DNA of 64,000 nucleotides, from contig OY970368.1 of assembly GCA_963718615.1 (NCBI GenBank), forward strand, positions 3,347,973 to 3,411,972. The letters run 5' to 3'. The notes under the pieces are model-generated. The model was not told the DNA's origin. It saw nothing but the letters and a program-made list of their open reading frames with translations, and made no database searches. Position 1 is the stretch's first letter; every line of letters begins with the position of its first letter. The stretch is from an uncultured cyanobacterium. GTDB taxonomy: Bacteria > Cyanobacteriota > Cyanobacteriia > PCC-9006 > JAAUQQ01. Positions 1-51,713 of this stretch are shown here, piece by piece. A program made the translations under genes and the position numbers.

Positions 1-3000
1 AATGAGCAATTTGTCGATCAATTTGTTTATGCGGCTTTCACTAATGTTGGTGAGCAGCAGGCTAGTGGTCAGATTAACGGGATTAATTTTACCTACACAA
101 CGACTCAGACTGTCCTCAACATTACAAACTCAATGTATAACCATGGGACTTTCCCATCTGAGTACGATGTTCCCAATGTAAATCCCACCATTCGCAATGA
201 CCAAGCCTCAACGAATCAATTGGTATTTGAGCAGCCAATGCTCAATCCAGTGCTGGTTTTTTCGTCGATTGGCAATCCTTTGACTCCTGTGCCAATTGAG
301 TTTGGAGCGCCAGTTGAAATTCTCTGGTCTCAAGATGTAACGATTAATAGCCCCACTAGTATCACAGGAGCAGAAGGGTTTGCGATCGTTCGATTTAACG
401 GCCTGTTTGATGTCATTGATTTTCAATATCTAGCAGACGAGACATATGTAAACTTTGCCTTTGGGGCTAGCTTTAAACAGGGGGAGGATACCGACGGTGA
501 TGGTATTCAGGATTATCTGGACCTCGACTCCGATAACGACGGTATTACCGACAATGTCGAGGCGCAAACGACAGCCGACTATATTGCGCCGACCGGCACC
601 GATAACGATGGTGACGGTCTCGATGATGCCTATGAGGGCGCGGGTAACCAGGGGCTGACTCCGGTCAACACCGACGGCACGGATGCCGTCGACTATCTGG
701 ACTCAGATTCTGATAACGACGGCATCAGCGATGCTGCCGAGCGTGGAACCGGTGGACCCACAACGAATGCAACGGGACTCTCCGACGCGACCACCGATGC
801 TGACGGCGATGGTCTGTTCGACGTTTTCGAAGGAGGTACGCCCAACGATGGCTTCGACGTCAACGGTGACAACCTGACGGGCACGACTTTTAATCTCGCC
901 GATACTGATAACGATGTCCTCTCTGATGGCAGCGATGCCATTGCCCGATCTAATGATCTCGACTATCGCGACAACAGCACCGAAGTTTCGATCACCGCTA
1001 ACGATGCTAACGCGGCTGAAGCCGCCGACAACGGTCAATTCACCGTCACCCTAAACCAGCCCTTCAGTAGCGACACCACCGTCAACTACAGCATTAGTGG
1101 AACGGCCAGCAATGGCACAGACTACACAACCCTGACCGGCTCGGTCATAATTCCTGCTGGTGCCACTTCCGCGCCCATCAATATCGCTGTTACGGATGAT
1201 CCCTTAGTGGAGCAGGATGAAACCGTCATCCTAACCCTTACCAGTGCCACCAACCCCAAGGGCACTGTGACGCTAGGAAGTGAAAATACTGCAACGGTCA
1301 ACATCACTGATACAGATACGGCTTTAGTGTCTATCAGTGCTACGGATGCGATCGCGGCAGAAGATATCAACAATGGGCAATTTACCGTTAGCCTCACGAA
1401 TCCCAGCGATGTTGATACCGTCATCAGCTACAGCATCGGGGGAGATGCAACCCCCGGCAGTGACTATACGCCCCTTACCGGAACGGTCACCATTCTGGCA
1501 GGTAATACCAGCGCCACCATCAACGTATCGGTTCTAGATGACAGCCTTAGTGAGCTCGATGAAGCCGTCACGGTTACCCTAATAGCCATAACCAGTGGGG
1601 ATAGCGATGTTTCCATTAACCTCGCCCAAAACGCTTCGACAGTAACGATTCTGGCGGATACCGATGGCGACAATGTTCCTGACATCATTGACCTAGACGA
1701 CGACAACGATGGCATCCTCGACACGGTTGAAGCTGCCACTGCTCCTGCGAATGGTGACACCGATGGAGATGGCATTCCGGATCGCCTCGACCTTGATTCT
1801 GACAACGACGGCATCAACGATGTCATCGAAGCGGGTCATGGCGTCACCGATACCGATGGCGATGGTATGCTCGATGGGCCTGTCGGTAGCGATGGGATTC
1901 CCGATGCCGTTCAATCTAGTCCGAATAGTGGCATCGTCAACTATGCTCTGGCGAATACCGATGGTGATGGTCAGCCTGACTTCCAAGACCTCGACTCCGA
2001 TAATGATAGTCTCTCCGACCTGATCGAAGGCGGCAGTGGCGGAGCCGATGCAAATAACGATGGCGTAGTGGATGGTCCCGATACCGATGGCGATGGCATC
2101 CAGGATTCAGTTGATGCAACACCTACGACCTATGGTGATGGAGCCAGTCCTGCACTGCCCGATGCCGATAGTGCAGCCAATCCCAATACCCCCGACTATA
2201 TCGATGTTGATAGCAACAACAACGGAATCAACGACATCGCTGAAGCGGGCAATGGCATTCTCGATCCCAATGGGGATGGGGCGATCGATAACATCACCGA
2301 CAATGACAAAGACGGCATTCCCGACGTCGTCGACGATTCCGATCTCGATGGAATTCCTGACGCCGTTGATGGCACACCCAATCCAGCTTTCGGGGGGCTG
2401 GGAGAGCCCGATAGCGATGGGGATGGCATTGCAAACGTTGATGACCTCGACGACGACAATGATGGAATTTTAGATGCGGTTGAAGAAGCAGGAAACGCCA
2501 TTCGCGACACCGATGGCGATGGAATTCTCGATCGCCTAGACCTAGACTCTGATAACGACGGCATCAACGATGTGCTCGAAGCGGGCCACGGAGCACCGGA
2601 TGCCAATGGCGACGGCATCCTCGATGGTCCCGTTGGAAGTGATGGTATTCCCGATTCAGTCCAGGCTTCACCCAATGATGGCACCGTGAACTACGGTTTA
2701 CCTGCCAACAGTGACAGCGACCCCATCCCCGACTTCCAAGACCTCGACTCTGACAACGACAGCCTCAGCGACCTCTACGAAGGCGGGAGCGGTGGCCCCG
2801 ATGCCAACAATGATGGCGTCGTTGACGGGATTGATAGTGACGGCGATGGCATTCTCGACGCAGTAGATGGTGTGCCTGCAACCTATGGGGATGCGGGAAG
2901 TCCTGCACTGCCCAACGCTGATAATGACCTAGTCCCGAACTACATTGACCCCGACAGCGATAGTGATGGGGTCAATGACATCGATGAAGCTAGCAATGGT

Positions 3001-6000
3001 AGTTTAGATGTCAATAACGATGGCGAGATAGATGACCTTGCTGATGCCGATGGGGATGGTGTTCCCGATGTCATTGATGACTCCGATTTAGATGGCACGC
3101 CTGATAAAACTGATACCACGCCCAATGCTGGCTTTGGTGGTCTGGGTCTTGTGGACACGGATGGCGATGGCGTTGCTGATATTGCAGACCTGGATGACGA
3201 CAACGATGGCATTCTGGATACTGTTGAAGAGGCAGGGAATCCGGATCGAGATACTGATGGCGATAGCATTCTAGATCGTTTGGATCTAGACGCCGATAAT
3301 GACGGCATCAATGACTTGATTGAAGCTGGACATGGTGCCATTGATGCCAATGGCGATGGCTTGGTGGATGGCAATGTCGGAGCCAATGGTTATGTGGATA
3401 TTCTAGAGACCACTCCCGATTCCGGCGAAGCGAATTTTGCACCTCGTAATAGCGACAACGATGCCAATCCCGATTTTCAAGATCTTGATGCTGATAATGA
3501 CAGCATTAGCGATCTGATTGAAGGCGGCAGCAATGGTGCAGACGCCAACAACGATGGCGTGGTGGATGGACCCGACACCGATGGAGATGGTATCCAAGAT
3601 AGTGTGGATGGCACACCCAATAGTTTTGGGGATAGCGGCAGTCCTGCGGTCCCCAATGATGATGCAGACACAACACCCAACTACATCGACCCAGACAGCA
3701 ACAATGATGGCACTCATGACATCCTCGAAACCGGCAACGGTGTTCTAGATGGCAATGGGGATGGGGTCATCGATAATGCCACAGATCTGGATGGAGACGG
3801 CATTGCTGATGTCATTGATGATTCTGACAACGATGGCACACCTGATGCAGTAGACACGACACCGAATGCAGCCTTTGGCGGTTTAGGGGGGCCTGCACCG
3901 GATGCAGATGGGGATGGCATTGCCAACGATGCAGATCTCGACGATGACAACGATGGCATTTTAGACAGCATTGAAGAAGCGGGAGACCCAACCAGGGATA
4001 CGGATGGAGATGGCATTCCGGATCGCCTCGACCTTGATTCTGACAACGATGGCATCAACGATGTCATCGAAGCGGGTCATGGCGTAACCGATACCGATGG
4101 CGATGGTATGCTCGATGGGCCTATCGGTAGCGATGGGATTCCCGATGCCGTTCAATCTAGTCCGAATAGTGGCATCGTCAACTATGCTCTGGCGAATACC
4201 GATGGTGATGGCCAGCCCGACTTCCAAGACCTTGATTCTGATAACGATAGCCTTAGTGACTTAGTTGAAGGCGGCAGCGGAGGTAATGATAGCGATGGCG
4301 ATGGCGTCGTCGATGGTCCCGATACCGACAAAGATGGAATTCAAGATTCCGTCGATGGTAACCCAGGTCTCTATGGGGATGGAGGAAATTTCGCACCGCA
4401 AAACAGCGATAGCGATCCAAATCCGGATTACATCGATATTGATAGTGACGGAAATGGCGTTGATGATATTGACCAGGCCGGAAGTACAATTCTCGACGGG
4501 AATAACGATGGCAGAATCGATGACATTACCGATAACGATAACGACGGCATTGCTGATGTTATTGACGATTCCGATCAAGATGGGATTCCTGATATTTCCG
4601 ATAGTGATCCCCAAAGCTTTGGCGGGCTAGGTAAGGCCGACACCGATGGCGATGGCATTCTCAACTCGGAGGATTTGGATGATGATAATGATGGGATTCT
4701 GGATACCGTTGAAGAAGCTGGAGATATCGATCGCGACACCGATGGCGATGGCATTCTAGACCGTTTGGATCTCGACAGCGATAACGACGGCATCAACGAT
4801 GTGCTCGAAGCGGGTCACGGAGCACCTGACGCCAATGGCGACGGCATCCTCGATGGTCCCGTTGGAAGCGATGGTATTCCCGATTCAGTGCAGGCTTCAC
4901 CCAATGATGGCACCGTGAACTACGGTTTACCTGCCAACAGTGACAGCGACCCCATCCCCGATTTCCAAGACCTCGACTCTGACAACGACAGCCTCAGCGA
5001 CCTCTACGAAGGCGGGAGCGGTGGCCCCGATGCCAACAATGATGGCGTCGTTGACGGGATTGATAGTGACGGCGATGGCATTCTCGACGCAGTAGATGGT
5101 GTGCCTGCAACCTATGGGGATGCGGGAAGTCCTGCGCTGCCCAACGCTGATAATGACCTAGCCCCGAACTACATTGACCCCGACAGCGATGGTGATGGGG
5201 TCAATGACATCGATGAAGCTAGCAATGGTGGTTTAGATGTCAATAACGATGGCGAGATTGATGACCTTGCTGATGCCGATGGAGATGGTGTTCCCGATGT
5301 CATTGATGACTCCGATTTAGATGGCACGCCTGATAAAACTGATACCACGCCCAATGCTGGCTTTGGTGGTCTGGGTCTTGTGGACACGGATGGTGATGGC
5401 GTTGCTGATATTGCAGACCTGGATGACGACAACGATGGCATTCTGGATACTGTTGAAGAGGCAGGGAATCCGGATCGAGATACCGATGGCGATGGCATTC
5501 TAGATCGTTTGGATCTAGACGCCGATAACGACGGCATCAATGACTTGATTGAAGCTGGACATGGTGCCATCGATGCTAATGGCGATGGCTTGGTGGATGG
5601 CAATGTCGGAGCCAATGGTTATGTGGATATTCTAGAGACCACTCCCGATTCCGGCGAAGCGAATTTTGCACCTCGTAATAGCGACAACGATGCCAATCCC
5701 GATTTTCAAGATCTTGATGCTGATAATGACAGCATTAGCGATCTGATTGAAGGCGGCAGCAATGGTGCAGATGCCAACAACGATGGCGTGGTGGATGGGC
5801 CCGACACCGATGGAGATGGTATCCAAGATAGTGTGGATGGTACACCCAATAGTTTTGGGGATAGCGGCAGTCCTGCGGTCCCCAATGATGATGCAGACAC
5901 AACACCCAACTACATCGACCCAGACAGCAACAATGATGGCACTCATGACATCCTCGAAACCGGCAACGGTGTTTTAGATGGCAATGGGGATGGAGTCATC

Positions 6001-8328
6001 GATAATGCCACAGATCTGGATGGAGACGGCATCGCCGATGTCATTGACGATTCTGACAACGATGGCACACCTGATGCAGTAGACACGACACCGAATGCAG
6101 CCTTTGGCGGTTTAGGGGGGCCTGCACCGGATGCAGATGGGGATGGCATTGCCAACGATGCAGATCTCGACGATGACAACGATGGCATTTTAGACAGCAT
6201 TGAAGAAGCGGGAGACCCAACCAGGGATACGGATGGAGATGGCATTCCGGATCGCCTCGACCTTGATTCTGACAACGACGGCATCAACGATGTCATCGAA
6301 GCGGGTCATGGCGTCACCGATACCGATGGCGATGGTATGCTCGATGGCCCAGTGGGGGCCAATGGCGTGGATGATGCTGTTGAATCCTCACCGGATAGTG
6401 GGATTGTGGATGCTCCTGTCAACAGCGACAGTGATGCTCAGCCAGATTTCCAGGATTTGGATGCGGATAACGATGGTCTCTCTGATTTCCTCGAAGGAGG
6501 TGCGCTGTTCAATGGCGGATTTGATGCTGACGATAATGGCGTAATTGATGGACCAGATACAGACAAGGATGGTATTCCTGATTCGGTTGATGGCACACCC
6601 AATGCCTATGGAGATAGCGGCAGTCCGGCATTGCCCGATGGCGATAGTGCTACGGATCCAGATTCGCCGGATTATCGCGATCGCACCAACAACGAAAATG
6701 GCCTCAATGACATCAATCCCGATCTAGATCTCAACAACGACGGTGAAATCGACGATGTCACCGATAACGATAACGATGGCATTGCCGACATCATTGATGA
6801 CTCTGACAGCGATGGTATGGTCGATGCAAACCCCGCAGAAACCGATCCTCAAAGCTTTGGCGGTCTGCCCGCAACGGACACGGATGGGGATGGCGTGCCT
6901 GACAGCCGTGACCTAGACGATGACAACGATGGCATTCTTGACAGCGATGAAGGCAACGGCAAGATTGATACCGATGGCGACGGAATTGTTGATTCCCGCG
7001 ACCTAGATACGGATAACGACGGTATCCTTGATGTGGAAGAAGCGGGCCATAGTCAAGCCGATATCGATGGAGATGGACGGGTTGATGGTCCTGTCGGTAA
7101 TAACGGACTGCCAGATACCGTTGAATCGACTCCCGACAGTGGCATTCCTAGCTATACGGTGTTGGATACCGATGGGGATGGCATTGAGGACTTCAAAGAC
7201 CTCGATTCCGACAACGACGGTATCAATGATGTGATTGAAGGGGGTGGCCAAGACCCCGATGGAGACGGGACGATCCACGGCGGTGGTCCGATTGTGGATG
7301 TGGACCGAGATGGCATTTTGGATGTCATTGATCCGTCCCAAGGGGGAAGTCCTGTTCCTGTGCTGGATACGGATGGCGATGGCATCGAAAATTATCGGGA
7401 TTTAGATTCTGACAATGATGGCGTCAAAGATATTGTCGAAGGTGGAAATGCGGCTGCCGATGCTGATGGGGATGGTCGCATTGACGGGCCAGATGCCGAT
7501 GGGGATGGCATTCCTGATCGGGTCGATCCGTCCCTCGGCTTTGGCGACTCGGGCGATGGCACTGCACCGGATAGCAATGGTGATGGTATTCCCGATTTCC
7601 TCCAACCCGGCAGCAACACGGGCTCCGGCAGCCAAGGCACTGGCGGTAGCGATGTGATTAATGGCGGTGCTGGGGGCGATATTATCAATGGTCTCAGCGA
7701 CGACGACGTTTTGGACGGTGGTGCAGGCGATGATGTGATCAATGGCGGCAGCGACCAAGATACGACTGTTGGGGGAAGCGGCAACGATATTGTTAACGGC
7801 GGTAGCGATGGTGACCAAGTCAATGGCGGCGATGGCAATGACATCGCGAACGGCGGCAGTGGTAATGACCTCATTGCTGGGGATGACGGTGACGATATCA
7901 TGAACGGCGGTAGCGGTCTGGATACACTCTATGGTGGTCTCGGGAATGACATCCTCAATGGCGGCAGTGGAGATGACCTGATCTATGGCGGTGCAGGCAG
8001 TGACATTATTCGTGGCTCTACGGGCAATGACATGCTGGTAGGCGGCGATGGTTCCGATCTGTTGTTTGGTGGTCAAGGAGATGATCGCTTTGTCTACGAA
8101 TCCCTGAGCGAATTCGGCGATACGATTCTTGATTTTGAGATTGTGCGCGATCGCATCGATCTCCAAGGCATTTTCAACGGTAATGCGGCCCTAGGTAGCA
8201 ATGTGCAAGCGCAACAGCTCGGTCTGCATTCGCTGATTCTTGCCAATACAGGCTCCGGTATGCAACAGGTTGCCATGCTGCTCAATGTTAATGCCAGTAC
8301 CTTAGATAGCAGCAACTTTATCTTCTAA
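1..8328 (+). CDS. Giant secreted calcium-binding repeat protein (5' partial; thrombospondin-type-3-like Asp-rich repeats, two Calx-beta domains, 7 tandem ~247-aa units, C-terminal RTX nonapeptide block)
   Basis: Frame is open from nt 1, so the gene continues upstream of the window (ORF track starts at an internal Met, 133). Dense DxDxDGxxD motifs; Calx-beta-like segments (e.g. 'NYSISGTASNGTDYTTLTGSVIIPAGATS...DDPLVEQDETVILTLTS'); GGxGxDxxx repeats at about nt 7650-8090; C-terminal region typical of type I secretion substrates. Confidence 0.85.
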   Translation, partial: NEQFVDQFVYAAFTNVGEQQASGQINGINFTYTTTQTVLNITNSMYNHGTFPSEYDVPNVNPTIRNDQASTNQLVFEQPMLNPVLVFSSIGNPLTPVPIEFGAPVEILWSQDVTINSPTSITGAEGFAIVRFNGLFDVIDFQYLADETYVNFAFGASFKQGEDTDGDGIQDYLDLDSDNDGITDNVEAQTTADYIAPTGTDNDGDGLDDAYEGAGNQGLTPVNTDGTDAVDYLDSDSDNDGISDAAERGTGGPTTNATGLSDATTDADGDGLFDVFEGGTPNDGFDVNGDNLTGTTFNLADTDNDVLSDGSDAIARSNDLDYRDNSTEVSITANDANAAEAADNGQFTVTLNQPFSSDTTVNYSISGTASNGTDYTTLTGSVIIPAGATSAPINIAVTDDPLVEQDETVILTLTSATNPKGTVTLGSENTATVNITDTDTALVSISATDAIAAEDINNGQFTVSLTNPSDVDTVISYSIGGDATPGSDYTPLTGTVTILAGNTSATINVSVLDDSLSELDEAVTVTLIAITSGDSDVSINLAQNASTVTILADTDGDNVPDIIDLDDDNDGILDTVEAATAPANGDTDGDGIPDRLDLDSDNDGINDVIEAGHGVTDTDGDGMLDGPVGSDGIPDAVQSSPNSGIVNYALANTDGDGQPDFQDLDSDNDSLSDLIEGGSGGADANNDGVVDGPDTDGDGIQDSVDATPTTYGDGASPALPDADSAANPNTPDYIDVDSNNNGINDIAEAGNGILDPNGDGAIDNITDNDKDGIPDVVDDSDLDGIPDAVDGTPNPAFGGLGEPDSDGDGIANVDDLDDDNDGILDAVEEAGNAIRDTDGDGILDRLDLDSDNDGINDVLEAGHGAPDANGDGILDGPVGSDGIPDSVQASPNDGTVNYGLPANSDSDPIPDFQDLDSDNDSLSDLYEGGSGGPDANNDGVVDGIDSDGDGILDAVDGVPATYGDAGSPALPNADNDLVPNYIDPDSDSDGVNDIDEASNGSLDVNNDGEIDDLADADGDGVPDVIDDSDLDGTPDKTDTTPNAGFGGLGLVDTDGDGVADIADLDDDNDGILDTVEEAGNPDRDTDGDSILDRLDLDADNDGINDLIEAGHGAIDANGDGLVDGNVGANGYVDILETTPDSGEANFAPRNSDNDANPDFQDLDADNDSISDLIEGGSNGADANNDGVVDGPDTDGDGIQDSVDGTPNSFGDSGSPAVPNDDADTTPNYIDPDSNNDGTHDILETGNGVLDGNGDGVIDNATDLDGDGIADVIDDSDNDGTPDAVDTTPNAAFGGLGGPAPDADGDGIANDADLDDDNDGILDSIEEAGDPTRDTDGDGIPDRLDLDSDNDGINDVIEAGHGVTDTDGDGMLDGPIGSDGIPDAVQSSPNSGIVNYALANTDGDGQPDFQDLDSDNDSLSDLVEGGSGGNDSDGDGVVDGPDTDKDGIQDSVDGNPGLYGDGGNFAPQNSDSDPNPDYIDIDSDGNGVDDIDQAGSTILDGNNDGRIDDITDNDNDGIADVIDDSDQDGIPDISDSDPQSFGGLGKADTDGDGILNSEDLDDDNDGILDTVEEAGDIDRDTDGDGILDRLDLDSDNDGINDVLEAGHGAPDANGDGILDGPVGSDGIPDSVQASPNDGTVNYGLPANSDSDPIPDFQDLDSDNDSLSDLYEGGSGGPDANNDGVVDGIDSDGDGILDAVDGVPATYGDAGSPALPNADNDLAPNYIDPDSDGDGVNDIDEASNGGLDVNNDGEIDDLADADGDGVPDVIDDSDLDGTPDKTDTTPNAGFGGLGLVDTDGDGVADIADLDDDNDGILDTVEEAGNPDRDTDGDGILDRLDLDADNDGINDLIEAGHGAIDANGDGLVDGNVGANGYVDILETTPDSGEANFAPRNSDNDANPDFQDLDADNDSISDLIEGGSNGADANNDGVVDGPDTDGDGIQDSVDGTPNSFGDSGSPAVPNDDADTTPNYIDPDSNNDGTHDILETGNGVLDGNGDGVIDNATDLDGDGIADVIDDSDNDGTPDAVDTTPNAAFGGLGGPAPDADGDGIANDADLDDDNDGILDSIEEAGDPTRDTDGDGIPDRLDLDSDNDGINDVIEAGHGVTDTDGDGMLDGPVGANGVDDAVESSPDSGIVDAPVNSDSDAQPDFQDLDADNDGLSDFLEGGALFNGGFDADDNGVIDGPDTDKDGIPDSVDGTPNAYGDSGSPALPDGDSATDPDSPDYRDRTNNENGLNDINPDLDLNNDGEIDDVTDNDNDGIADIIDDSDSDGMVDANPAETDPQSFGGLPATDTDGDGVPDSRDLDDDNDGILDSDEGNGKIDTDGDGIVDSRDLDTDNDGILDVEEAGHSQADIDGDGRVDGPVGNNGLPDTVESTPDSGIPSYTVLDTDGDGIEDFKDLDSDNDGINDVIEGGGQDPDGDGTIHGGGPIVDVDRDGILDVIDPSQGGSPVPVLDTDGDGIENYRDLDSDNDGVKDIVEGGNAAADADGDGRIDGPDADGDGIPDRVDPSLGFGDSGDGTAPDSNGDGIPDFLQPGSNTGSGSQGTGGSDVINGGAGGDIINGLSDDDVLDGGAGDDVINGGSDQDTTVGGSGNDIVNGGSDGDQVNGGDGNDIANGGSGNDLIAGDDGDDIMNGGSGLDTLYGGLGNDILNGGSGDDLIYGGAGSDIIRGSTGNDMLVGGDGSDLLFGGQGDDRFVYESLSEFGDTILDFEIVRDRIDLQGIFNGNAALGSNVQAQQLGLHSLILANTGSGMQQVAMLLNVNASTLDSSNFIF
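1690..6909 (+). repeat. Intragenic tandem array: 7 units of 738-753 bp (types A-C-B-A-C-B-A), each starting with 'DLDDDNDGILD'; higher-order period 2229 bp
   Basis: Unit starts read at 1690, 2443, 3187, 3934, 4672, 5416, 6163, next at 6910. Units 2-3 and the first part of unit 4 (about 2500-4125) are near-identical at DNA level to units 5-6 and the first part of unit 7 (about 4730-6355). Antisense ORF-track entries 2940..3386 and 5169..5615 are near-duplicates exactly 2229 bp apart. Confidence 0.9.
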
Positions 8329-8378
8329 GGTGTTGAGCTTGCTTCTCCTCCTGGAGAAAAGGGTGGATGCTTAAAAGT

Positions 8379-8411
8379 CTAGATTGGGTTAATTGACGAA
8401 ACCCAATCTAG
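8379..8411 (+). terminator. Stem-loop downstream of the giant gene (11-bp perfect stem ctagattgggt / acccaatctag, 11-nt loop); no clear U-tract
   Basis: Inverted repeat read directly in the sequence about 50 nt after the stop at 8328. Confidence 0.35.
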
Positions 8412-8505: not shown

Positions 8506-10242
8506 ATGGCTGAGCTGACCCCGGTAGAGTTGGGTAACCCTGTTTCCTTGCTCAACGAGAGTGATTATGCTGCGCTTCAGGCGTTGTATATTAACACGGA
8601 TGGTGAGCAGTGGAAAAATAATCAAGGTTGGCAAGATTGGGATTTTTTAAGCCCAACACCACCCGAACTGTCGGTCATGAATGGCTGGTTTGGAGTCAGT
8701 TTGAGTGGCGATCGCATCACCACTCTCTCCCTCGGCAGCAATCGACTGAAGGGCAACTTACCAACGGCCTTAGGCCAACTCTCCGACCTCAAAACGCTCT
8801 ATCTTTATGGTAATCAGTTAACCGGTGTTATCCCGGAATCCCTGGGAAATTTGAGCCAGCTTAATCACCTAGCATTGAGTGGTAATCAACTGGATGGAGC
8901 ATTGCCTTCAAACCTGGGAAATCTTGCTAATTTACAATATCTTTATCTGAACAACAATCGTTTACAAGGGGTGCTACCGACAGAATTTGCCGATCTGGAA
9001 GAGCTGATTTACCTCTCTCTTGCAGACAACCAATTCAGGGGTGAAATCCCGGAGACTTGGGGCAGTTGGCCCAACCTTAAAACCTTGCAATTGGCCAATA
9101 ACCAACTGAGCGGAACGGTTCCCCCAGCGCTAATAGATGCAATTCATCAAGGGAGCGGTTCTTACAATCTCAATAACCCGATCGCGGTGACCGGTTTGCC
9201 AGCGACCATTGCCCTCATGGAAGCGATTGAACCCACTGCGATCGCCTTGACGTTCAGCGATCTCGATGCTCTGGGCAGTGACGATCTGGAGACTTTGGCC
9301 CTCACCGCAACGGTCGATCATCCCGATCTCGTGACCCTCGAACTCACTGGAACCGGGGCCGATCGAACCCTCAACCTCATGCCCCAACCCAATCGAGCTG
9401 GAACCACAACGCTGCGGCTAACCGCCCAAGATGACAGTGGCGAACAAACGACGGTGGCGATCGCCCTCACACTCCAGGACCAACCGGAAACCGGAAGTTT
9501 TAGCGCTGTTAGGGATTTGTTGTGGCGCAATCCCACCACAGGCGAAAATCTCCTTTGGCGGATGGCCGGACTCGATCGAGTTGAAACAATTGCGCTCACG
9601 GCAGGATTGGATGCTAACTGGGAATGGGTCGGCCTCGGCCAATTTAATGGGGATGATCAGACGGATTTGGTCGGGCGAAATGCTCAAACGGGCGAGACCC
9701 AACTGTGGCTGATGAATGGCAATGCCTTGGCCGAAACGGTGACTTGGACTGCGAACCAAAACGAAGGACAGTTGGTAGGATTAGGTGATTTTGATGGCGA
9801 TGCTCAAACCGATTTGATTTGGCGAAATTCCCAAACAGGGCAAAATTATATTTGGTATTTGAACGGTAATGCGCTGCGTCAGCGTCAGCCATTGATGGCG
9901 ATCGCCGACTCCCATTGGCAGATCGTCGGCACAGGACAATTTAATCAGGATGCCTACAGCGATCTAATTTGGCGCAATCTTAAAACAGGGCAAACTTTGC
10001 TTTGGCTCATGCAAGCCGGAAGCCCCATGGCGGCCTTACCGCTCCCATCCGTATCCAATCTAGACTGGCAACTGGTGGGGACCCGAGATTTAAATCAAGA
10101 TGGTGGATCAGACCTACTCTGGCAAAATGCCCAGACCGGGGCCGCAGTGGCTTGGTTGATGCAGAGCGGTCAGCGGCTGTCGGCCCATCACTTGAACCCT
10201 GCGGGAGATTTGGGAGCATCGGCCCATTGGAGTTTGAGTTAA
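8506..10242 (+). CDS. Leucine-rich repeat protein fused to FG-GAP/VCBS-like beta-propeller repeats
   Basis: N-terminal half has about 7 LRRs of the LxxLxxLxLxxNxLxGxIP type ('LSDLKTLYLYGNQLTGVIPESLGNLSQL...'); C-terminal half has repeated 'GxFxGDxQTDLIWRNxxTGQ' motifs. ATG at 8506; ORF track begins at an in-frame TTG at 8485. Confidence 0.75.
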   Translation: MAELTPVELGNPVSLLNESDYAALQALYINTDGEQWKNNQGWQDWDFLSPTPPELSVMNGWFGVSLSGDRITTLSLGSNRLKGNLPTALGQLSDLKTLYLYGNQLTGVIPESLGNLSQLNHLALSGNQLDGALPSNLGNLANLQYLYLNNNRLQGVLPTEFADLEELIYLSLADNQFRGEIPETWGSWPNLKTLQLANNQLSGTVPPALIDAIHQGSGSYNLNNPIAVTGLPATIALMEAIEPTAIALTFSDLDALGSDDLETLALTATVDHPDLVTLELTGTGADRTLNLMPQPNRAGTTTLRLTAQDDSGEQTTVAIALTLQDQPETGSFSAVRDLLWRNPTTGENLLWRMAGLDRVETIALTAGLDANWEWVGLGQFNGDDQTDLVGRNAQTGETQLWLMNGNALAETVTWTANQNEGQLVGLGDFDGDAQTDLIWRNSQTGQNYIWYLNGNALRQRQPLMAIADSHWQIVGTGQFNQDAYSDLIWRNLKTGQTLLWLMQAGSPMAALPLPSVSNLDWQLVGTRDLNQDGGSDLLWQNAQTGAAVAWLMQSGQRLSAHHLNPAGDLGASAHWSLS

Positions 10243-10243
10243 C

Positions 10244-11368
10244 CTAATCCTTGGGTAAGCGATTGCCTCGGGACGATTGCCATTGATTCAGCCAAACCGC
10301 TAACAGCGTCACCACCGACAGCGGAATCACAAATAGAATCATCGCTCCACTAAAGGGACCTAGGACCGCATGGTCCATAGTTCGCAGCACCAAATAGGCA
10401 ACGTAGGCCGCGTAATAGCCCACAAACACCAGCCCTTCCCAGCGGCTAATGACATTTCCCGTAAAGAAAATCGGCAGACAGGCGATCGCCACCGCAATCA
10501 TAATCGGAATATCAAACCGGACCGCTGCGGAGGATACCGCCAACCCCGCCGGAGAAAACAAACTGGAAAGACCCAAAACCACCAAAATATTAAAAATATT
10601 GCTGCCAACCACATTGCCCACGGCAATATCCCGTTCGCCCTTCAGCGTCGCCACGATCGAGGTTGCCAGCTCCGGCAGCGATGTTCCGGCGGCCACAATG
10701 GTCAAGCCAATCACCAGTTCACTCACCCCGATGGCTTGGGCGATCGCGATCGCAGAAGTCACTAACCACCGAGACCCCAAAAGCAACAACCCAACGCCCA
10801 AACCAATCCAGCCTAGGTTAATGGCCCATGTCTTTAGCGTCATTTTCTGATTGCTCTGGTCTCCGCCTCCATATTCCTGCGCATATTCCGCCCGCACGGC
10901 TTCATTTTGCTCTCGGCGGGATTGGATAATCTGAAAGGCCGTATAGCCAATACCACCTGCGCTCAGGAGCAGCCCATCGGGCAACGTCAGGCGACCATCA
11001 GCACCCAGAACCAGCATCAGAATCGAGACCCCGATCATCACTGGCACATCAATCCGAACCAGCTGTTGGGCGACGACAAGGGGGGCCGCAAGGGCAGACA
11101 ATCCCAAAATCAGCAAGACATTAAAAATATTGCTCCCCACGACATTGCCCACGGCGATATCAATCTGGCCCGTAAGGCTCGACTGAATACTCACCGCCAG
11201 CTCCGGCGCACTCGTTCCGTAGGCAACAATCGTCAATCCAATAATTAACGGCGAAATGCCCAGACTCGTGGCTAAGTTTGAGGCTCCCCGTACCAGCGCA
11301 TCCGCGCCAACCACCAATAGTGCAAGACCCGCAACTAACAGAACGATCGTAGCGATGCTCATACACAA
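10244..11368 (-). CDS. Na+/Ca2+ exchanger (CaCA family, YrbG-like)
   Basis: Polytopic membrane protein with two internal alpha-repeats 'GNVVGSNIFNVLLILG' and 'GNVVGSNIFNILVVLG', the signature of CaCA exchangers. Confidence 0.85.
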   Translation of the reverse strand: MCMSIATIVLLVAGLALLVVGADALVRGASNLATSLGISPLIIGLTIVAYGTSAPELAVSIQSSLTGQIDIAVGNVVGSNIFNVLLILGLSALAAPLVVAQQLVRIDVPVMIGVSILMLVLGADGRLTLPDGLLLSAGGIGYTAFQIIQSRREQNEAVRAEYAQEYGGGDQSNQKMTLKTWAINLGWIGLGVGLLLLGSRWLVTSAIAIAQAIGVSELVIGLTIVAAGTSLPELATSIVATLKGERDIAVGNVVGSNIFNILVVLGLSSLFSPAGLAVSSAAVRFDIPIMIAVAIACLPIFFTGNVISRWEGLVFVGYYAAYVAYLVLRTMDHAVLGPFSGAMILFVIPLSVVTLLAVWLNQWQSSRGNRLPKD

Positions 11369-11567
11369 AGACAGCCGGAGACATCTCTCGGAGGAAAAGG
11401 TTGACGATGTTTAAGAATTTGAGTTAGCCCTCGATTTTCCCACGAAAGCCGGGTCTGGGGATCACGCTGCGATAAATCTTGATTCCTCTGCACGCTTCCT
11501 AGGGAGAGCTGCTACGCTAAAATCGTTAACTTACGTAACAGATTCGCTGAAACTGTTTAGTGAAGTC

Positions 11568-12623
11568 GTGGTGGAATCCCGTGAACGTCAAATTCGCCGC
11601 GAGCTTATTGCCGCCATCTTGCTCTTCTTGGGGGTTCTGCTGATCGGCACGGCAGGATATCGGACGATTGAGCGATGGAGCTTGCTGGACTCCGCTTATA
11701 TGACCATTATTACCCTAAGCAGCGTAGGGTTCGGCGAAATCCAGCCCCTCAGCCCCCCAGGAAGACTCTTTACAATTTCGCTGATTTTGATGGGCCTTTT
11801 GAGCATTGGCTATATTGTCAATCGATTTACAGAGGCTATTGTCCAGGGCTACTTTCAAGATAGCCTGCGTTCTCGCCGGAAACGACGTGTGATCAAGAAA
11901 CTACGCAATCACTATATTTTATGTGGCTATGGCAGGGCCGGTCGCCATGTGGCCCATGAATTTGCCGAGGAGCAGGTACCGTTTATCGTCGTCGATCCGC
12001 AGCCCGAAGCAATTCTGGATGCAAAACAGCGTGGCTACCTTACCTACCAGGGAGATGCGACCCTTGATCAAACCCTGATTGCAGTGGGAATCCAGGATGC
12101 CAATTGCATTGTGGCGGCGATGCCTTCGGACTCGGACAATCTTTACACCGTGCTTTCCGCCAAAGCCCTGCGACCAGGTTTACGGACGATCGCCCGCGCC
12201 AATACCGAAGAAGCCGTCATCAAGATGCAGCGAGCGGGGGCCGATGCGGTGATCTCTCCTTATATTACGGGGGGAAAACGGTTGGCCGCAGCAGCACTAC
12301 GCCCTCAGGTGATGGATTTTGTAGATGGCATTGGATTGGGAGGCGATCGCTCCTTTTATCTAGAGGAGGTCGTGATTCACGCCCAGGACTGTCCCTATGT
12401 GAATCAGGAATTGCGGGAGACGGATTTGCGATCGCGCAGCAGCGCTCTCATCCTGGCGATTCGTCGCACCGAGGGGGAGCTAATTCCAGGGCCTACCGGA
12501 GAAACTCGCTTGCTGGATGGCGATTTGCTGATTTGCATGGGAACAGCAGAACAACTCCGAACGCTCATCAAAATTCTGATCCCCCTGGGCTCGACCATGC
12601 CGCGTTTGCCCCGCAATCAGTAA
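11568..12623 (+). CDS. Two-TM K+-channel-like protein with cytoplasmic RCK (TrkA-N/TrkA-C) domain
   Basis: Pore segment 'TLSSVGFGE' between two hydrophobic helices; Rossmann motif 'ILCGYGRAGRHVA' of TrkA-N/RCK follows. GTG start. Confidence 0.8.
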   Translation: MVESRERQIRRELIAAILLFLGVLLIGTAGYRTIERWSLLDSAYMTIITLSSVGFGEIQPLSPPGRLFTISLILMGLLSIGYIVNRFTEAIVQGYFQDSLRSRRKRRVIKKLRNHYILCGYGRAGRHVAHEFAEEQVPFIVVDPQPEAILDAKQRGYLTYQGDATLDQTLIAVGIQDANCIVAAMPSDSDNLYTVLSAKALRPGLRTIARANTEEAVIKMQRAGADAVISPYITGGKRLAAAALRPQVMDFVDGIGLGGDRSFYLEEVVIHAQDCPYVNQELRETDLRSRSSALILAIRRTEGELIPGPTGETRLLDGDLLICMGTAEQLRTLIKILIPLGSTMPRLPRNQ

Positions 12624-12700
12624 AATTCCTTAAAATTGCTTGCAACCCAAAAGTTGACCGGACCTTCGGCTTAATCTCCGCACAATTTCGATGGCGTGTC

Positions 12701-12913
12701 CTAATTGAGCTTGAGCGCTGCAACCGGAACCTCATCCCAGGAGGAAACCCTATACATCCGAACGGTCCATCCCTGAGCTTTTTGAGCATCGCTTAAATTT
12801 TCCTGAAAGGAAACATAACATTCCCTGGCTTGCTCTTCATTGCAACAAGCGATACAGGCATAGAGAATCCCAGCCGGATCCACCTGTTCATTTACCCAAA
12901 TGGTTTTAGACAT
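12701..12913 (-). CDS. Small hypothetical protein (70 aa)
   Basis: ATG-initiated ORF in the gap between the channel gene and psbA; no recognisable domain. Confidence 0.3.
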   Translation of the reverse strand: MSKTIWVNEQVDPAGILYACIACCNEEQARECYVSFQENLSDAQKAQGWTVRMYRVSSWDEVPVAALKLN

Positions 12914-13148
12914 GCTTTCACTTTACAAAAATAAACAAAGCTTGAGCAAATACTCAAACAAACTACAAATAAGTTAATGGCAAGGTTTTTGAAAGTCTTG
13001 TAGCCTTTAATTAAGGCATTGCAACGAAAGTTGACTGTCTTTTCATAATTCGCATTCCTAGTTAAAAGCTTACAGGCAATTTGTCTAAATGGCTTTAGCC
13101 GGGATTGTCAGTCTTTATCTGTACATTTCTCGCAATTCATAAATCACC

Positions 13149-14231
13149 ATGACGACTACACTTCGCGGACGCGAAAGTGCCAGTACGTGGGAGCGCTTTT
13201 GCGCTTGGATCACAAGCACCAACAACCGCATTTATGTGGGTTGGTTTGGCGTTCTGATGATCCCTTGCCTGCTTACTGCCACGATTTGCTTCATTATTGC
13301 GTTTATCGCAGCACCTCCCGTCGATATCGATGGCATCCGTGAGCCTGTGGCTGGCTCCTTGCTCTACGGCAACAACATCATGTCTGGCGCGGTTGTGCCC
13401 TCTTCCAACGCCATTGGCCTGCACTTCTACCCCATCTGGGAAGCAGCTTCCCTCGATGAGTGGTTGTACAACGGCGGCCCTTACCAATTGGTTTGCTTCC
13501 ACTTCCTCATCGGCATTTTCTGCTGGATGGGTCGTCAGTGGGAACTCTCCTACCGCCTCGGCATGCGTCCTTGGATTTGTGTGGCTTACTCTGCACCTGT
13601 AGCAGCAGCAACCTCAGTTTTCCTGATCTACCCGATCGGCCAAGGTTCGTTCTCCGATGGTATGCCCCTGGGTATCTCCGGTACATTCAACTTCATGTTC
13701 GTGTTCCAGGCTGAGCACAACATTCTGATGCACCCCTTCCACATGCTCGGTGTGGCTGGCGTCTTCGGTGGAAGCTTGTTCTCCGCAATGCACGGTTCGT
13801 TGGTGACTTCTTCCTTGGTGCGTGAGACCACTGAAGTAGAATCCCAGAACTACGGCTACAAGTTTGGACAAGAAGAGGAAACCTACAACATCGTTGCAGC
13901 CCACGGCTACTTCGGTCGTCTGATTTTCCAATACGCTTCGTTCAACAACAGTCGTGCACTGCACTTCTTCTTGGGTGCATGGCCGGTTGTAGGCATTTGG
14001 TTGACCGCAATGGGCATCAGTACCATGGCATTCAACCTCAATGGCTTTAACTTCAACCAGTCTGTGATTGATAGCCAAGGTCGCGTTGTTGCAACCTGGG
14101 CCGATGTCCTCAACCGTGCGAACCTGGGTATGGAAGTGATGCACGAGCGCAATGCTCACAACTTCCCCTTGGATCTCGCTTCGGGTGAAGCTACTCCCGT
14201 TGCCCTGACTGCTCCTGCGATCAACGGCTAA
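13149..14231 (+). CDS. psbA: Photosystem II reaction centre protein D1
   Basis: Translation is unmistakably D1 ([39 protein letters not shown] ... [23 protein letters not shown]), including the C-terminal extension removed by CtpA. Confidence 0.97.
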
Positions 14232-16776: not shown

Positions 16777-18042
16777 TTAGGAGGAAGCATCATCCGGCGA
16801 TGGCGATGCCTGGAGTATGGTTTTCGAGACGATGCGGGTCTTTTTGCGATCGCTCTCCGATAACTCCTCTCCCGACTGTAACCGCGTCGCATTTTCCTGC
16901 AACACCGTTGCCGCTCGCTGGTCGCCCATTTGCAACGCCGTTTGCGCAGCCGTTTGCAGCATGGTGGCGGCCCCTGTGCGATCGCCCGCCTGAAGTTTCG
17001 CCTCGGCGATCTGGGTTTGTCGATATTTGGCTAGCGTCAAGACTTGCTGTTGGACATCGGCATCCACCTGGGCCGCATGATCCGCCACCGCTTCGACGGC
17101 GATCGCCACCGGCTCAGACAGCAGGCCGGTTTTCCCCGAAGCCGGATCATCGTAACGAACCCGAAGCTGAGCAATGTCGTGGCGACCCTCAGGCAACTGC
17201 TGAATATAGAGATTGACCAACACCTGCCGGGGAAAATCCACCATCAGGTCTCCCAGTCTGGCCTCAATGCGGTTGCCTTCGACGAGGGGCTGTAGCTCAA
17301 TGACATCTGGGCTGACCTGGGCCAGGGGCTTGGTGTTGGCCAACGTCACCCGAGGATCCAGTTCTAGCAGGAGCTGGGCATTGGTCAACCCCACGGTTTG
17401 CATCCGCTGAAAGAGGCGGCTAAATTCTCCTAGAACCTCTTCAGACCGTTCAATGTAGGTGAGGCTGCCGCCGCCCACGTCGGCGATTTGTTCCAGGATA
17501 TTTTGGTTCCAGTGGTCGCCAAACCCCAGCGTATTCACCGTTAGGCCAAAATCCGCCGCCAGTTTCGCAAATTTCAAACAGCGCTCATTGCTGCCATGTT
17601 CATTTTCGCCATCGGTGAGTAGCAGCGCCTGGGACACCGCCTCGCCCTTGCCCTTAGCCAATTCTTCAATGCCGAGCCGGAGTCCTTCGTCAATGGCGGT
17701 GCCCCCGCCCGCCTCCAGTTGGGCGATCGCCCCCCGAATTGTCGCCGGATTGTCGATCACCTGGTTGGGAATTAACAGCCGCGCCCGATGGTCAAAGCTG
17801 ACGACCGACAGGCGATCGCCCGGTGTTAGTTTTTCCAGCAACCGCAAGGCCGCCTGTTTCACCGTTTCGAGGGGACGGCCCCCCATGGAGCCGCTCTGGT
17901 CCAGCATGAGGCAAAGATTTAGCGGCGCACGGCCTGCCCCTGCCGCCAAGGCACTGATCGAGACCGCGAGCTGTCGTTGACTCTGGGGTTGGGCGATCGC
18001 CACCTGGGGGTCACTCAGCGTACCGTTTAAACCAACTTGCAT
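16777..18042 (-). CDS. von Willebrand factor type A (VWA) domain protein
   Basis: VWA signature with MIDAS-like 'DQSGSM', 'LSVVSFDHRA' and 'LLLTDGENEHG'; ATG start. Confidence 0.75.
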   Translation of the reverse strand: MQVGLNGTLSDPQVAIAQPQSQRQLAVSISALAAGAGRAPLNLCLMLDQSGSMGGRPLETVKQAALRLLEKLTPGDRLSVVSFDHRARLLIPNQVIDNPATIRGAIAQLEAGGGTAIDEGLRLGIEELAKGKGEAVSQALLLTDGENEHGSNERCLKFAKLAADFGLTVNTLGFGDHWNQNILEQIADVGGGSLTYIERSEEVLGEFSRLFQRMQTVGLTNAQLLLELDPRVTLANTKPLAQVSPDVIELQPLVEGNRIEARLGDLMVDFPRQVLVNLYIQQLPEGRHDIAQLRVRYDDPASGKTGLLSEPVAIAVEAVADHAAQVDADVQQQVLTLAKYRQTQIAEAKLQAGDRTGAATMLQTAAQTALQMGDQRAATVLQENATRLQSGEELSESDRKKTRIVSKTILQASPSPDDASS

Positions 18043-18285
18043 TCGCCTTTTCCTTTCCGACAGGTCATTCGTTCCAACTGCTTCAACTCAGCGACCGAAC
18101 GGGGGTCTTGTTCTCTATTCTGACCTAAGATTTCGGCCCTGTGGCCCCTCACTCGCTTTCAGTTTGCCCAAATGGAGTTAAAAAGAATTGCAGAAAAAAT
18201 TTAGGGCTGATCAACCGCAGCCGTCTCGTCAAACCGAGCGCTAGTATGGTACTGGTAACGCGCAAAGCCTAGGCAAGACCAATTT

Positions 18286-18981
18286 ATGAGTGGACCGATC
18301 AAAGCTGTTCAAGCGGCTTCCTACGGAGACGCCTACTATCGCACTCCGCCGCCCGATCTCCCTTCACTATTACTGAAGGAGCGGATTGTTTATTTGGGCC
18401 TGCCCCTCTTCTCTGACGACAACGTTAAACGTCAGGTGGGGGTTGATGTCACTGAGTTGATCATTGCTCAACTGCTGTACTTGCAGTTTGATAGCCCTGA
18501 AAAGCCGATTTACTTCTACATCAACTCGACGGGCACCTCCTGGTATGACGGGGCCTCTGTGGGATATGAAACCGAGGCCTTTGCGATTTGCGATACCCTC
18601 AGCTACATCAAGCCACCGGTCCATACCATTTGCATTGGTCAGGCCATGGGCACCGCTGCGGTAATTTTGTCCGCTGGCACCAAAGGCTGTCGGGCCAGCT
18701 TGCCCCACGCCACCATCGTGCTCAATCAGCCTCGAACCGGCGCAGGCCAAGGGCAAGCTACGGATATTCAGATTCGGGCCCAGGAAGTGTTGGACAACAA
18801 GCACACCATGATGGAGATTCTCTCGAAGAACACCGGCCAGCCTATTGAAAAGCTTGTAAAGGATACCGATCGCACCTTCTATCTCACCCCTGACGTGGCA
18901 AAGGAATACGGCATCATTGATCGAGTTCTGGAAAGTACCAAGGACTTGCCTGTCCCGCCCGTTGCGGCAGGGATTGGCTAG
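18286..18981 (+). CDS. clpR: ClpR, catalytically inactive ClpP paralogue
   Basis: ClpP fold but the catalytic-serine motif is replaced ('CIGQAMGTAAVIL' instead of G-x-A-A-S-M-G); lies directly upstream of an intact clpP as in the cyanobacterial clpR-clpP3 operon. Confidence 0.85.
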   Translation: MSGPIKAVQAASYGDAYYRTPPPDLPSLLLKERIVYLGLPLFSDDNVKRQVGVDVTELIIAQLLYLQFDSPEKPIYFYINSTGTSWYDGASVGYETEAFAICDTLSYIKPPVHTICIGQAMGTAAVILSAGTKGCRASLPHATIVLNQPRTGAGQGQATDIQIRAQEVLDNKHTMMEILSKNTGQPIEKLVKDTDRTFYLTPDVAKEYGIIDRVLESTKDLPVPPVAAGIG

Positions 18982-30129: not shown

Positions 30130-30450
30130 GGAGCGTCATGGCGTCGTAAAGAAATGTTGCAAAACCCCGCAACTGTTTATCTTTCAACGCTTTTCCGCTC
30201 ATTTCCTTGTGATATTGCGTGATATTGCACTGATAAATTGAGACGAGGCAACTACAATAAAGTGAGCGGAGACGCATGTTTCCGTTCACTCCTCACACCA
30301 CACTTCGCCTGGACGGAAGTTCAGGCGTTTCTTCTTTTATTTGTCCCCTCGTTTTCTGTATCCAAGTATGTCGGTCCTATTATCAAAATTCTCAGAGTTC
30401 GCTATTGTAGGAAATTGAGGATAATGATTCATTAACCAAGGGTTTTAAGC

Positions 30451-49938: not shown

Positions 49939-51606
49939 TTAGAACCCCAGATCAGCCTTAGCGGCGGCGGCGGCTTCGAGCAAGTCCGCTGTGGCCATGG
50001 TGTCCCAGTCCATCGCCCCAATATCCCGATAAAATTGCGAATCATAGGCTCGGGTTTGCACGACCACGGGCATGGGCACAGCATGACCCAAAAGCAACGC
50101 CTGTTGTTTAGAATCCAGTTTTGACAGAACCGATCGCAAACTCTGTCCTCCTGAAACCCCGGTAAAAATCGCTTCGATATCCTTATCATCATTGAGCAAC
50201 GCCGTAATTCTGGTGCCTACCTGGGACATCACCTCCGGATCAATCCCCGAAGGGCGTTGGTCTACCACCAGCAGTGTGACAAAATACTTGCGCATTTCGC
50301 GAGCGATCGTCCCGAAAATCGTCTGACGCACCGTGGCTGAATCTAAAAATCGGTGGGCTTCTTCAATGGTAATAACCAGTTGCCGGGGGCGATCGCTCGG
50401 GTTCTTCGACTGCAAAAAACGATCGGCTTTGCGCACATAGGCTTCATGAATCCGGCGAGAAATGAGATTCGTGGCCAGCATATAGGACAACATATTCGAC
50501 TGGGAACCAAACTCGATGACCACATGCTTCCCGGCCTCTAAAGCATCTAAAATTTGGCCAATATAGTTGCGCTTGCAGGAGTTTTGAATATATTTGAGAT
50601 CATCCAATCGGGTGAGCTTGCGCTGCAACGCCATAATCGACGCCTTACTGCCCATTTTGACTTCACAAAATTCCTGAATTTCGCCATTGGTCATCGTCAG
50701 TAACCGCTGAATCCAGGACTTGCCAAACTCATTGCGCAGGATAATCGCATTTTCCAAACTCGCATCGGATAGGTTGAGCTCCTGGCGCACGAGGGCTAAA
50801 TCCTCCACCGAAATCTGGTCATAGCCGATATACAACTCTTGGGCATCGCGGACGCCACGTCGCTGGGTGGATTCCGGATCTAGGGTGTAGATTTGTACCT
50901 GATCTGGAAACAGTTGGCGCAGCCCCTTAACCATGGCAACCCGATGGCGATCGCCCCCTTCACTCGTGGCCTCCCAGCCATACTCCGAGTGCATATCAAA
51001 AATCAAATTCACCGCCGCCTGTTTGCGAATAATTCCTGAAAGCAAGAGTCGGGTTAGAAACGATTTGCCCGTGCCGGATTTACCAAAAATCCCGTTGCTG
51101 CGCTCGACAAAACGGTCAAGATCCAAACAAATCGGCACATCCATATCAATCGGACGACCCACGGCAAAATTGCAGCGATGGGGGTCATCTTCCCAGCCAA
51201 AGACGGCTCGAAAATCGCGTTCGCTCGCCTCATAAACCTGACTAAAATGGCTCGGAATTGTTTTCACCGGCAGCAGTTCTAGCTCCTGATCCCCCAGCGC
51301 CATGCCATCCTTGGGCGTAAACATCAGCATCGGAGCCAGCTCCGCCATCCCGTAGGTTGCAGACCCGGCCAACACCTCCTGCAAAAACAGATTAGCCGGG
51401 TCCGGCGGATCCGCTAAAATTCTCGGACTGCTGGTGCCTAAACTAACATCCGTGAGCATACAAAAAAAACGCGATCGCCGCCCCTGCACCACCAAAAACT
51501 TTCCCACCCGCAACTCTTCCACCGAGATATCCGGGTTGAGGCGAATCTCTAACCCTTTGCTCAGCGAACCTTGTACGACAACGCCAAGGGGGTAATCCAA
51601 ATACAT
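49939..51606 (-). CDS. HerA-like (DUF87) P-loop ATPase
   Basis: Walker A 'GIFGKSGTGKS', Walker B-like 'LLVVDQ'. Start placed at the ATG giving 'MYLDYPLG'; ORF track extends to TTG 51645. Confidence 0.7.
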   Translation of the reverse strand: MYLDYPLGVVVQGSLSKGLEIRLNPDISVEELRVGKFLVVQGRRSRFFCMLTDVSLGTSSPRILADPPDPANLFLQEVLAGSATYGMAELAPMLMFTPKDGMALGDQELELLPVKTIPSHFSQVYEASERDFRAVFGWEDDPHRCNFAVGRPIDMDVPICLDLDRFVERSNGIFGKSGTGKSFLTRLLLSGIIRKQAAVNLIFDMHSEYGWEATSEGGDRHRVAMVKGLRQLFPDQVQIYTLDPESTQRRGVRDAQELYIGYDQISVEDLALVRQELNLSDASLENAIILRNEFGKSWIQRLLTMTNGEIQEFCEVKMGSKASIMALQRKLTRLDDLKYIQNSCKRNYIGQILDALEAGKHVVIEFGSQSNMLSYMLATNLISRRIHEAYVRKADRFLQSKNPSDRPRQLVITIEEAHRFLDSATVRQTIFGTIAREMRKYFVTLLVVDQRPSGIDPEVMSQVGTRITALLNDDKDIEAIFTGVSGGQSLRSVLSKLDSKQQALLLGHAVPMPVVVQTRAYDSQFYRDIGAMDWDTMATADLLEAAAAAKADLGF

Positions 51607-51713
51607 GGCGATCGGAGATAAACAGGATAGGGCGCTATTTCTCAAGCGCTGTTTCCGAGTATAGAACAGGAATAGAAAAAATGTTCTATGGGAAATACTT
51701 CAGGGTTCAGGAC

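Follow-up and report, generated by a model that had tools for sequence, protein, structure and literature searches.

The stretch of DNA analyzed here (the window: 64,000 nucleotides [nt] of contig OY970368.1 in GenBank assembly GCA_963718615.1, from an uncultured cyanobacterium, positions 3,347,973 to 3,411,972 of the forward strand) opens with a giant gene for an Asp-rich, calcium-binding, RTX-type protein, and within this gene lies an array of long repeat units. Much of a three-unit block of about 2.23 kb (743 codons, about 30 calcium-binding loops) is found twice in the array in near-identical form. This arrangement is best read as a genuine in-frame tandem duplication of the block, to which we assign a probability of about 0.68. 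The segments on which the reading is based are listed below in window coordinates.

1690 to 7656, plus strand, array of eight Asp/Gly-rich units of about 248 amino acids (aa), delimited by anchor motif positions, identity matrices, and motif counts
1762 to 4002, plus strand, period 1 (H-Y-V1-X), 2241 nt
4003 to 6231, plus strand, period 2 (H-Y-V2-X), 2229 nt
1762 to 1877, 4003 to 4118, and 6232 to 6347, plus strand, the three copies of H, a 116-nt stretch; the copy at 4003 to 4118, in the chimeric unit 4, is the putative crossover site
1878 to 1970 (period 1) and 4119 to 4211 (period 2), plus strand, Y
1971 to 2550, plus strand, V1, diverged segment of period 1, 70% identical to V2
4212 to 4779, plus strand, V2, diverged segment of period 2, 70% identical to V1
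2551 to 4002 (period 1) and 4780 to 6231 (period 2), plus strand, X
2551 to 4118, plus strand, near-identical block copy 1 (X plus H), 98.2% identical to 4780 to 6347
4780 to 6347, plus strand, near-identical block copy 2 (X plus the third H), 98.2% identical to 2551 to 4118
1762 to 1970, plus strand, second near-identical patch (H-Y) in unit 1, matching 4003 to 4211 in unit 4
6318 to 6348, plus strand, branch point of a k=31 de Bruijn graph, at which an independent short-read contig begins

Unit starts were anchored on the motif DLDDDNDGILD and lie at 1690, 2443, 3187, 3934, 4672, 5416, 6163, and 6910. Nucleotide identity is 94% between units 2 and 5 and 98% between units 3 and 6, ranges from 70 to 76% among units 1, 4, and 7, and falls to 57 to 69% for all remaining pairs; the eighth unit (6910 to 7656) is the more diverged one. 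An offset scan of positions 1 to 8400 singled out 2229 nt, at which identity peaks at 98.7% (600-nt windows); the next-best offset reached 69%. Compared base by base, 2551 to 4118 and 4780 to 6347 differ at 28 of 1568 nt (98.2% identity), and the shift between them, 2229 nt or 743 codons, keeps the reading frame. With 98.2% identity between periods versus 57 to 70% between units, and a constant in-frame offset, the array has the form of a higher-order repeat. A preliminary description of this DNA, made from the letters alone, had reported that units 2 and 3 and the first part of unit 4 recur almost unchanged, exactly 2229 nt downstream, as units 5 and 6 and the first part of unit 7, and this is borne out. 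The span that it gave, 2443 to 6909, does contain the near-identical block, but the block starts at 2551, as the first 108 nt of unit 2 (2443 to 2550) are only 73% identical to those of unit 5. Of its seven-unit A-C-B-A-C-B-A pattern, the likeness of units 2 and 5 and of units 3 and 6 stands, whereas the eighth unit had gone uncounted and the A class (units 1, 4, and 7) is defined by local patches only. Outside the near-identical patches all unit pairs are about equally distant (57 to 70%), and an older A-C-B periodicity was rejected on this ground.

The second near-identical patch, which adds to the preliminary description, joins unit 1 to unit 4: positions 1762 to 1970 and 4003 to 4211 differ at 3 of 209 nt (98.6% identity), at an offset of 2241 nt. 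In a codon-aligned sliding comparison, unit 4 matches unit 7 from the unit start to 4118 with 2 differences (columns 1 to 185) and is nearly identical to unit 1 over 4003 to 4211 (columns 70 to 278). Unit 4 is a chimera, its left part matching that of unit 7 and its right part that of unit 1. The H copies of units 1 and 7 match at 116 of 116 positions, and the copy in unit 4 has 2 private differences. The layout of the array can be written as pre-(H-Y-V1-X)(H-Y-V2-X)-H-T, and in a global alignment the two periods agree at 2029 of 2228 aligned positions (91%).

The 28 differences in the main block comprise 24 synonymous substitutions and 4 amino acid changes, three of the Ser/Gly and one of the Val/Ala type, as the preliminary description had noticed. 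Calculated by the Nei-Gojobori method, synonymous (dS) and nonsynonymous (dN) divergences are 0.074 and 0.0033 in the main block (dN/dS, 0.045) and 0.065 and 0.0063 in the patch of units 1 and 4 (dN/dS, 0.098). The similar dS values indicate that both patches are of the same age, which is consistent with a single event. Main-block substitutions include 24 transitions and 4 transversions. The longest identical run between the copies, 230 nt, is equaled or exceeded in 30% of random placements of the differences. Nothing points to recent re-homogenization of the copies, and the ongoing gene conversion proposed earlier finds no support in the differences, which are scattered as at random (P = 0.30). 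The recent in-frame duplication proposed as its alternative holds as far as the in-frame copy of a 743-codon block is concerned; with a dS of 0.074, it is recent only relative to the other units. Judged from these substitution patterns, both copies appear to have been kept by purifying selection over a time comparable to between-strain divergence. A diversity-generating retroelement target was rejected, since the substitutions are of all kinds and an A takes part in just 9 of the 28; no reverse transcriptase was found among the scanned open reading frames (ORFs) of at least 200 aa.

One of the amino acid positions deserves separate mention. Unit 3 carries a Ser (DTDGDSILD) at position 3265, in codon 1045 when the ATG at 133 is taken as the first, and all seven other units, the near-identical unit 6 included, have the loop Gly (DTDGDGILD). 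The Ser is a derived change in the calcium loop, at a position that does not vary in the other units. On the minus strand, three pairs of ORFs lie 2229 nt apart (2940 to 3386 and 5169 to 5615, 3403 to 3717 and 5632 to 5946, and 3714 to 4067 and 5943 to 6296). These equal-length pairs mirror the duplicated coding block and are not evidence of antisense genes. Tandem Repeats Finder, with a longest searched period of 500, did not report the array.

The duplication would have arisen by unequal homologous recombination or a template switch between two copies of the 116-nt stretch H, three units apart, for which sister chromosomes or multiple chromosome copies could serve as partners. An ancestral pre-H-Y-V-X-H-T would thereby have become pre-(H-Y-V-X)(H-Y-V-X)-H-T, with the chimeric unit 4 as the junction. 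Both copies would afterwards have been held under purifying selection while drifting by about 1.8%, almost only at synonymous sites. The V segment must then have been replaced later from a donor absent from the window, unless the exchanging alleles already differed there. Going by domain content, a type I system would export the protein, and the duplication would lengthen its extracellular stalk, which calcium would stiffen.

Several results weigh against this reading. A clean duplication predicts identity throughout the period, and near-identity is broken by the V segment, which makes up about 0.57 kb of the 2.23-kb period and is only 70% alike between the periods; synonymous sites of V1 and V2 are saturated (proportion of synonymous differences, 0.75 to 0.84), as they are between any two units. 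The mismatch requires at least one further unseen event, and a donor for V1 or V2 was not found within the window. In the one genome of the species that the analysis covered, the gain of copies is not seen directly. As for the presumed function, a single unit matched 0 Pfam families at an E value of ≤1 and no solved structure in a PDB sequence search, and an AlphaFold2 model of one unit, with the eight-unit alignment as input, was unusable (predicted local distance difference test score, 48). A scan of the 55 kb downstream, covering ORFs of at least 200 aa, found no type I secretion genes (ABC transporter and membrane-fusion protein); the upstream flank is beyond the window edge, and such genes can be unlinked from the gene of their substrate (PMC12153261).

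The V segment also speaks for the main rival reading, gene conversion without any gain of copies. In this account, seven or eight diverged units already existed and were then overwritten from three units away, by one or two nonreciprocal transfers onto 4780 to 6347 (or 2551 to 4118) and 4003 to 4211 (or 1762 to 1970). Patchy conversion leaves just such a picture, with no more than about 1.78 kb of the 2.23-kb period near-identical and with V1 and V2 diverged like unrelated units, and it explains V without an unseen donor. Moreover, H is identical in units 1 and 7 between flanks that are 64 to 72% identical, so that a conversion-like event took place at least once. We nevertheless consider conversion without copy gain unlikely. 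No older three-unit periodicity exists outside the patches, where units three apart are 57 to 70% identical like any others, and a conversion tract of 1.6 kb would thus need partners of about 65% identity. Homologous recombination normally rejects partners this different. In addition, the two patches abut exactly and have equal dS, the tandem period is perfect, and the junction unit is chimeric, all of which would be coincidence if the transfers were independent, and relatives of the array show block duplications of different periods.

A second alternative is an actively homogenizing, hypervariable locus, in which conversion or unequal exchange is frequent and copy number varies between cells or strains. 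In other RTX proteins the number of such repeats does vary (PMC2257941; 10.1101/2025.09.30.679566), and identical runs of up to 230 nt provide ample substrate for recombination. However, a dS of 0.074 has already accumulated, and the random spread of the 28 differences, without a long freshly homogenized tract, speaks for long independent evolution, which makes this alternative improbable. There is an even slimmer chance that the mismatch of V1 and V2 is the trace of a cassette-like replacement; the surface protein would then be recombining actively and would differ in length and cassette content between cells or strains. Donors would then lie elsewhere in the genome, the host probably being polyploid, or in the population, and pressure from phages or grazers is an example of what could drive such variation.

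Independent short-read data bear on the assembly itself. A 7062-bp Logan contig (k=31, run ERR12035938) encodes three of the proteins downstream of the giant gene with exact sequences, and its first base corresponds to window position 6318, exactly 30 nt before 6348, the first base that distinguishes the copies. The 30-mer at 6318 to 6347 is present three times; the next base is G after the copies at 1848 and 4089 and C after the copy at 6318, so a k=31 graph must branch where the Logan contig starts. The start of this contig shows that the junction is real and that the continuation from H to T (unit 7) coexists in independent read data with that from H to Y. Assembly from short reads does fail at the repeat, as the preliminary description had anticipated, and the contig leaves the copy number unfixed. 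Synonymous changes make up 24 of the 28 differences (86%), compared with 23% expected from random errors (binomial P = 2e-12), which indicates that the differences are real, selected variants. An assembly artifact, against which the preliminary description had cautioned, such as two strain haplotypes set head to tail or a miscounted repeat, is very improbable: repetitive giant genes are often misassembled (10.1101/2025.09.30.679566) and the only other assembly with the locus breaks at the repeat, but the join is in frame and in register with a clean chimeric unit, the differences are selected ones, the branch at 6348 shows H to T plus at least one alternative continuation (H to Y, as in units 1 and 4), the source contig of the neighboring proteins is 6,095,823 bp long, and V1 and V2 differ, as they would not after a false duplication.

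The giant gene as a whole has the following further features.

1 to 8328, plus strand, giant ORF of at least 2775 codons, 5' end cut by the window, encoding an Asp-rich, calcium-binding, RTX-type protein
1 to 480, plus strand, conserved domain of about 150 aa without a Pfam match
970 to 1650, plus strand, two Calx-beta domains (Pfam PF03160, E = 9.3e-23, two stretches)
7663 to 8100, plus strand, block of RTX nonapeptides (GGxGxD; Pfam HemolysinCabind, E = 4.6e-37)
8101 to 8328, plus strand, nonrepetitive C-terminal tail of about 75 aa, with a type I secretion signal presumed from position alone

Frame 1 is open from the first base to a stop at 8328; the first listed ATG is at 133, and no in-frame stop precedes it in 1 to 132, which indicates that the gene extends upstream of the window. 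Besides the 150-aa domain and the two Calx-beta domains, which score 80.9 bits against the PF03160 cut-off of 27, the visible protein contains an Asp-rich linker. Each repeat unit holds 9 to 11 calcium-loop motifs of the form DxDxDGxxD (83 in the array), and the composition of the array is 25.7% Asp and 15.6% Gly. Consecutive loops of this form are what characterizes thrombospondin type 3 repeats; membership in the TSP_3 or TSP3_bac profile was rejected, as TSP3_bac scored 20.5 bits, below its cut-off of 25, and matched nowhere but in the N-terminal linker. The last 242 aa contain eight HemolysinCabind stretches, and 12 motifs of the GGxGxD type (G[GS]xGxD) lie at aa 2555 to 2690, a C-terminal nonapeptide block of the kind that marks RTX (repeats-in-toxin) proteins. 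On the basis of its domain content, it is probably a calcium-stiffened surface or extracellular protein that is exported by a type I system.

The 150-aa domain is shared with giant proteins in three metagenome loci, L080, L081, and L082, at 71%, 58%, and 46% identity, respectively (L080, 10001 to 10480; L081, 10001 to 10471; L082, 8124 to 8549). Its motif reads …MLNPVLVFSSIGNP…PVEVLWSQD…ETYVNF.FGA, and it is common to giant surface proteins of quite different architectures. The L080 homolog (2907 aa) has the N-terminal domain and linker in common with the window protein (61% identity over 324 aa) as well as the RTX end, and the C-terminal endings are alike (…DASNFKF versus …DSSNFIF in the window). 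Its middle is a different, cadherin/Ig-type region, and it has 1345 residues upstream of the point at which the window starts (DUF4347, with which it begins, Big_9/cadherin-like, and IgGFc_binding). Given these extra residues, the full-length window protein may exceed 4000 aa. The L080 homolog has its own 648-nt in-frame duplication of a two-domain block (12086 to 13338 and 17434 to 18686, 91 to 94%), and a further repeat with a 441-nt offset (92%) lies 3' of the gene. The ending of the L081 protein, judged by eye from the sequence, resembles the C-terminal domain of gliding-motility/type IX secretion system proteins. In all three loci the N-terminal domain is common with the window gene and the array is not, so they are of no use for comparing copy numbers.

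An ortholog with the same array was not found. The N-terminal 563 aa retrieved only generic Calx-beta or Asp-rich fragments of <1000 aa from an index of 5.8 billion proteins, a scan of genome contigs, which also missed the source genome, retrieved none, and no plasmid matched the array in a megablast search. The neighboring proteins form single-member clusters at 90%; the nearest Tex proteins are 76 to 81% identical and come from metagenome-assembled genomes (MAGs) labeled "Synechococcales," and those of Leptolyngbya-type genomes are about 68% identical. A profile built from the eight units matched 8869 proteins at an E value of ≤1e-3 and 1700 at ≤1e-30 among 1.84 billion representatives, many of them giants with 6 to 35 matched stretches. 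The closest array belongs to P0246, a giant protein with DUF4347 and Asp-rich repeats from a cyanobacterial MAG (GCA_012034805.1, locus L083). Its units of 315, 253, 315, 257, and 246 aa follow a P-Q-P'-Q'-Q'' pattern that goes back to a block duplication, in which 1869 nt recur 1704 nt away with 77.6% identity. The reading frame of P0246 ends abruptly at 12183 of L083, and Asp-rich repeat coding goes on in another frame for at least 3 kb, owing to either a frameshift or a misassembly in this short-read MAG. A Cellulophaga locus (L020) shows several multi-unit offsets with 92 to 99.8% identity, and direct repeats (≥400 nt, ≥90% identity) are present in 7 of the 78 fetched loci. Block duplications in these related arrays indicate that such arrays usually grow by this route, and the window appears to hold the youngest block duplication among the arrays examined. 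The three-unit duplication is an ordinary growth route for genes of this kind and calls for no new mechanism, with the V segment as the one loose end.

P0246 also offers the nearest point of comparison at the level of units. Its units and those of the window form one family, with 60 to 68% amino acid identity to the window units, the same as among the window units themselves, and both arrays share the DLDDDNDGILD anchor and growth by duplication of multi-unit blocks. In contrast, the P0246 block consists of two units (315 plus 253 aa) and is much older (77.6% nucleotide identity), and the domains upstream of the arrays differ.

The gene resembles those of giant RTX adhesins with extender regions, such as Legionella RtxA, Marinomonas MpIBP, and proteins of the LapA/SiiE type, in its very large size, its C-terminal RTX nonapeptides, and its long central tandem array. 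A survey of RTX adhesins described near-identical interior repeats, pairs of dissimilar extenders in series, isoforms that differ in extender number, and systematic misassembly from short reads (10.1101/2025.09.30.679566). The repeat number of Legionella RtxA varies between strains (PMC2257941), and its type a repeats, like the repeats of the Paris strain, are thrombospondin type 3-like (PMC2257941; PMC11264772). Common to these adhesins and the window array are near-identical interior and diverged outer repeats, dissimilar repeat sets duplicated as a block, and short-read assemblies that break. However, the repeat described here is not of the Ig-like fold but a 248-aa super-unit of about ten DxDxDG loops, and the block is present in only two copies, diverged by 1.8%, and not in tens that are identical. 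The host differs as well, being a cyanobacterium, and adjacent secretion genes were not seen in the 55 kb downstream. The N-terminal region required for retention of the LapG/LapD type, if there is one, lies outside the window, and the L080 homolog begins with DUF4347 instead.

A likeness also exists to satellite higher-order repeats and to the compound megasatellites of Candida glabrata adhesin genes (PMC2566889), in that the periods are 98% alike versus 57 to 70% between neighboring units within a period. Unequal exchange is the accepted cause of such repeats. The window repeat differs in being coding and constrained (dN/dS, 0.045), in consisting of two periods and a partial third, and in having its periods interrupted by a nonhomologous segment of 0.57 kb. 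DDxP proteins are large RTX-type proteins with modules of 243 to 309 aa that carry DGDGD motifs and each end in Asp-Asp-x-Pro (Di Nocera and De Gregorio, 2020; PMC7730722), and the window protein is like them in type, module size, and acidic motifs. Membership in this group was rejected, as DD.P has 0 matches in the 2775 residues, and, unlike for DDxP proteins, there is no hint that the array grew through insertions with target-site duplications.

In this array one sees clearly how a giant protein of calcium-binding repeats gains length, with the crossover stretch preserved, the junction unit chimeric, and the copies under purifying selection, and it comes from a cyanobacterial lineage without close sequenced relatives. 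For this organism, the locus marks where short-read assemblies break or miscount. If its copy number is variable, it would be a ready marker for strain typing by PCR or long reads.

The window is cyanobacterial, its source being a Leptolyngbya-like organism, with a psbA (D1) gene at 13149 to 14231 and a Yfr1 small RNA at 30266 to 30329 on the plus strand (58.3 bits against a gathering score of 38). The Logan contig ends inside psbA at about 13379, presumably because psbA is multicopy in this genome. Directly 3' of the giant gene are genes for a leucine-rich-repeat and FG-GAP protein (8506 to 10242), a Na+/Ca2+ exchanger (10244 to 11362, minus strand), and a K+ channel with a TrkA domain (11568 to 12623), and the order of the four genes is the same on the Logan contig. 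The stretch from 8506 to 12623 may be a calcium-handling neighborhood. A second, small protein of 244 aa (60942 to 61676, plus strand) consists largely of RTX nonapeptide repeats (HemolysinCabind, E = 4.7e-33). Elsewhere in the window, a HerA-type ATPase (DUF87 plus HAS-barrel; 49939 to 51645, minus strand) adjoins a DUF389 membrane protein at 51714 to 53492.

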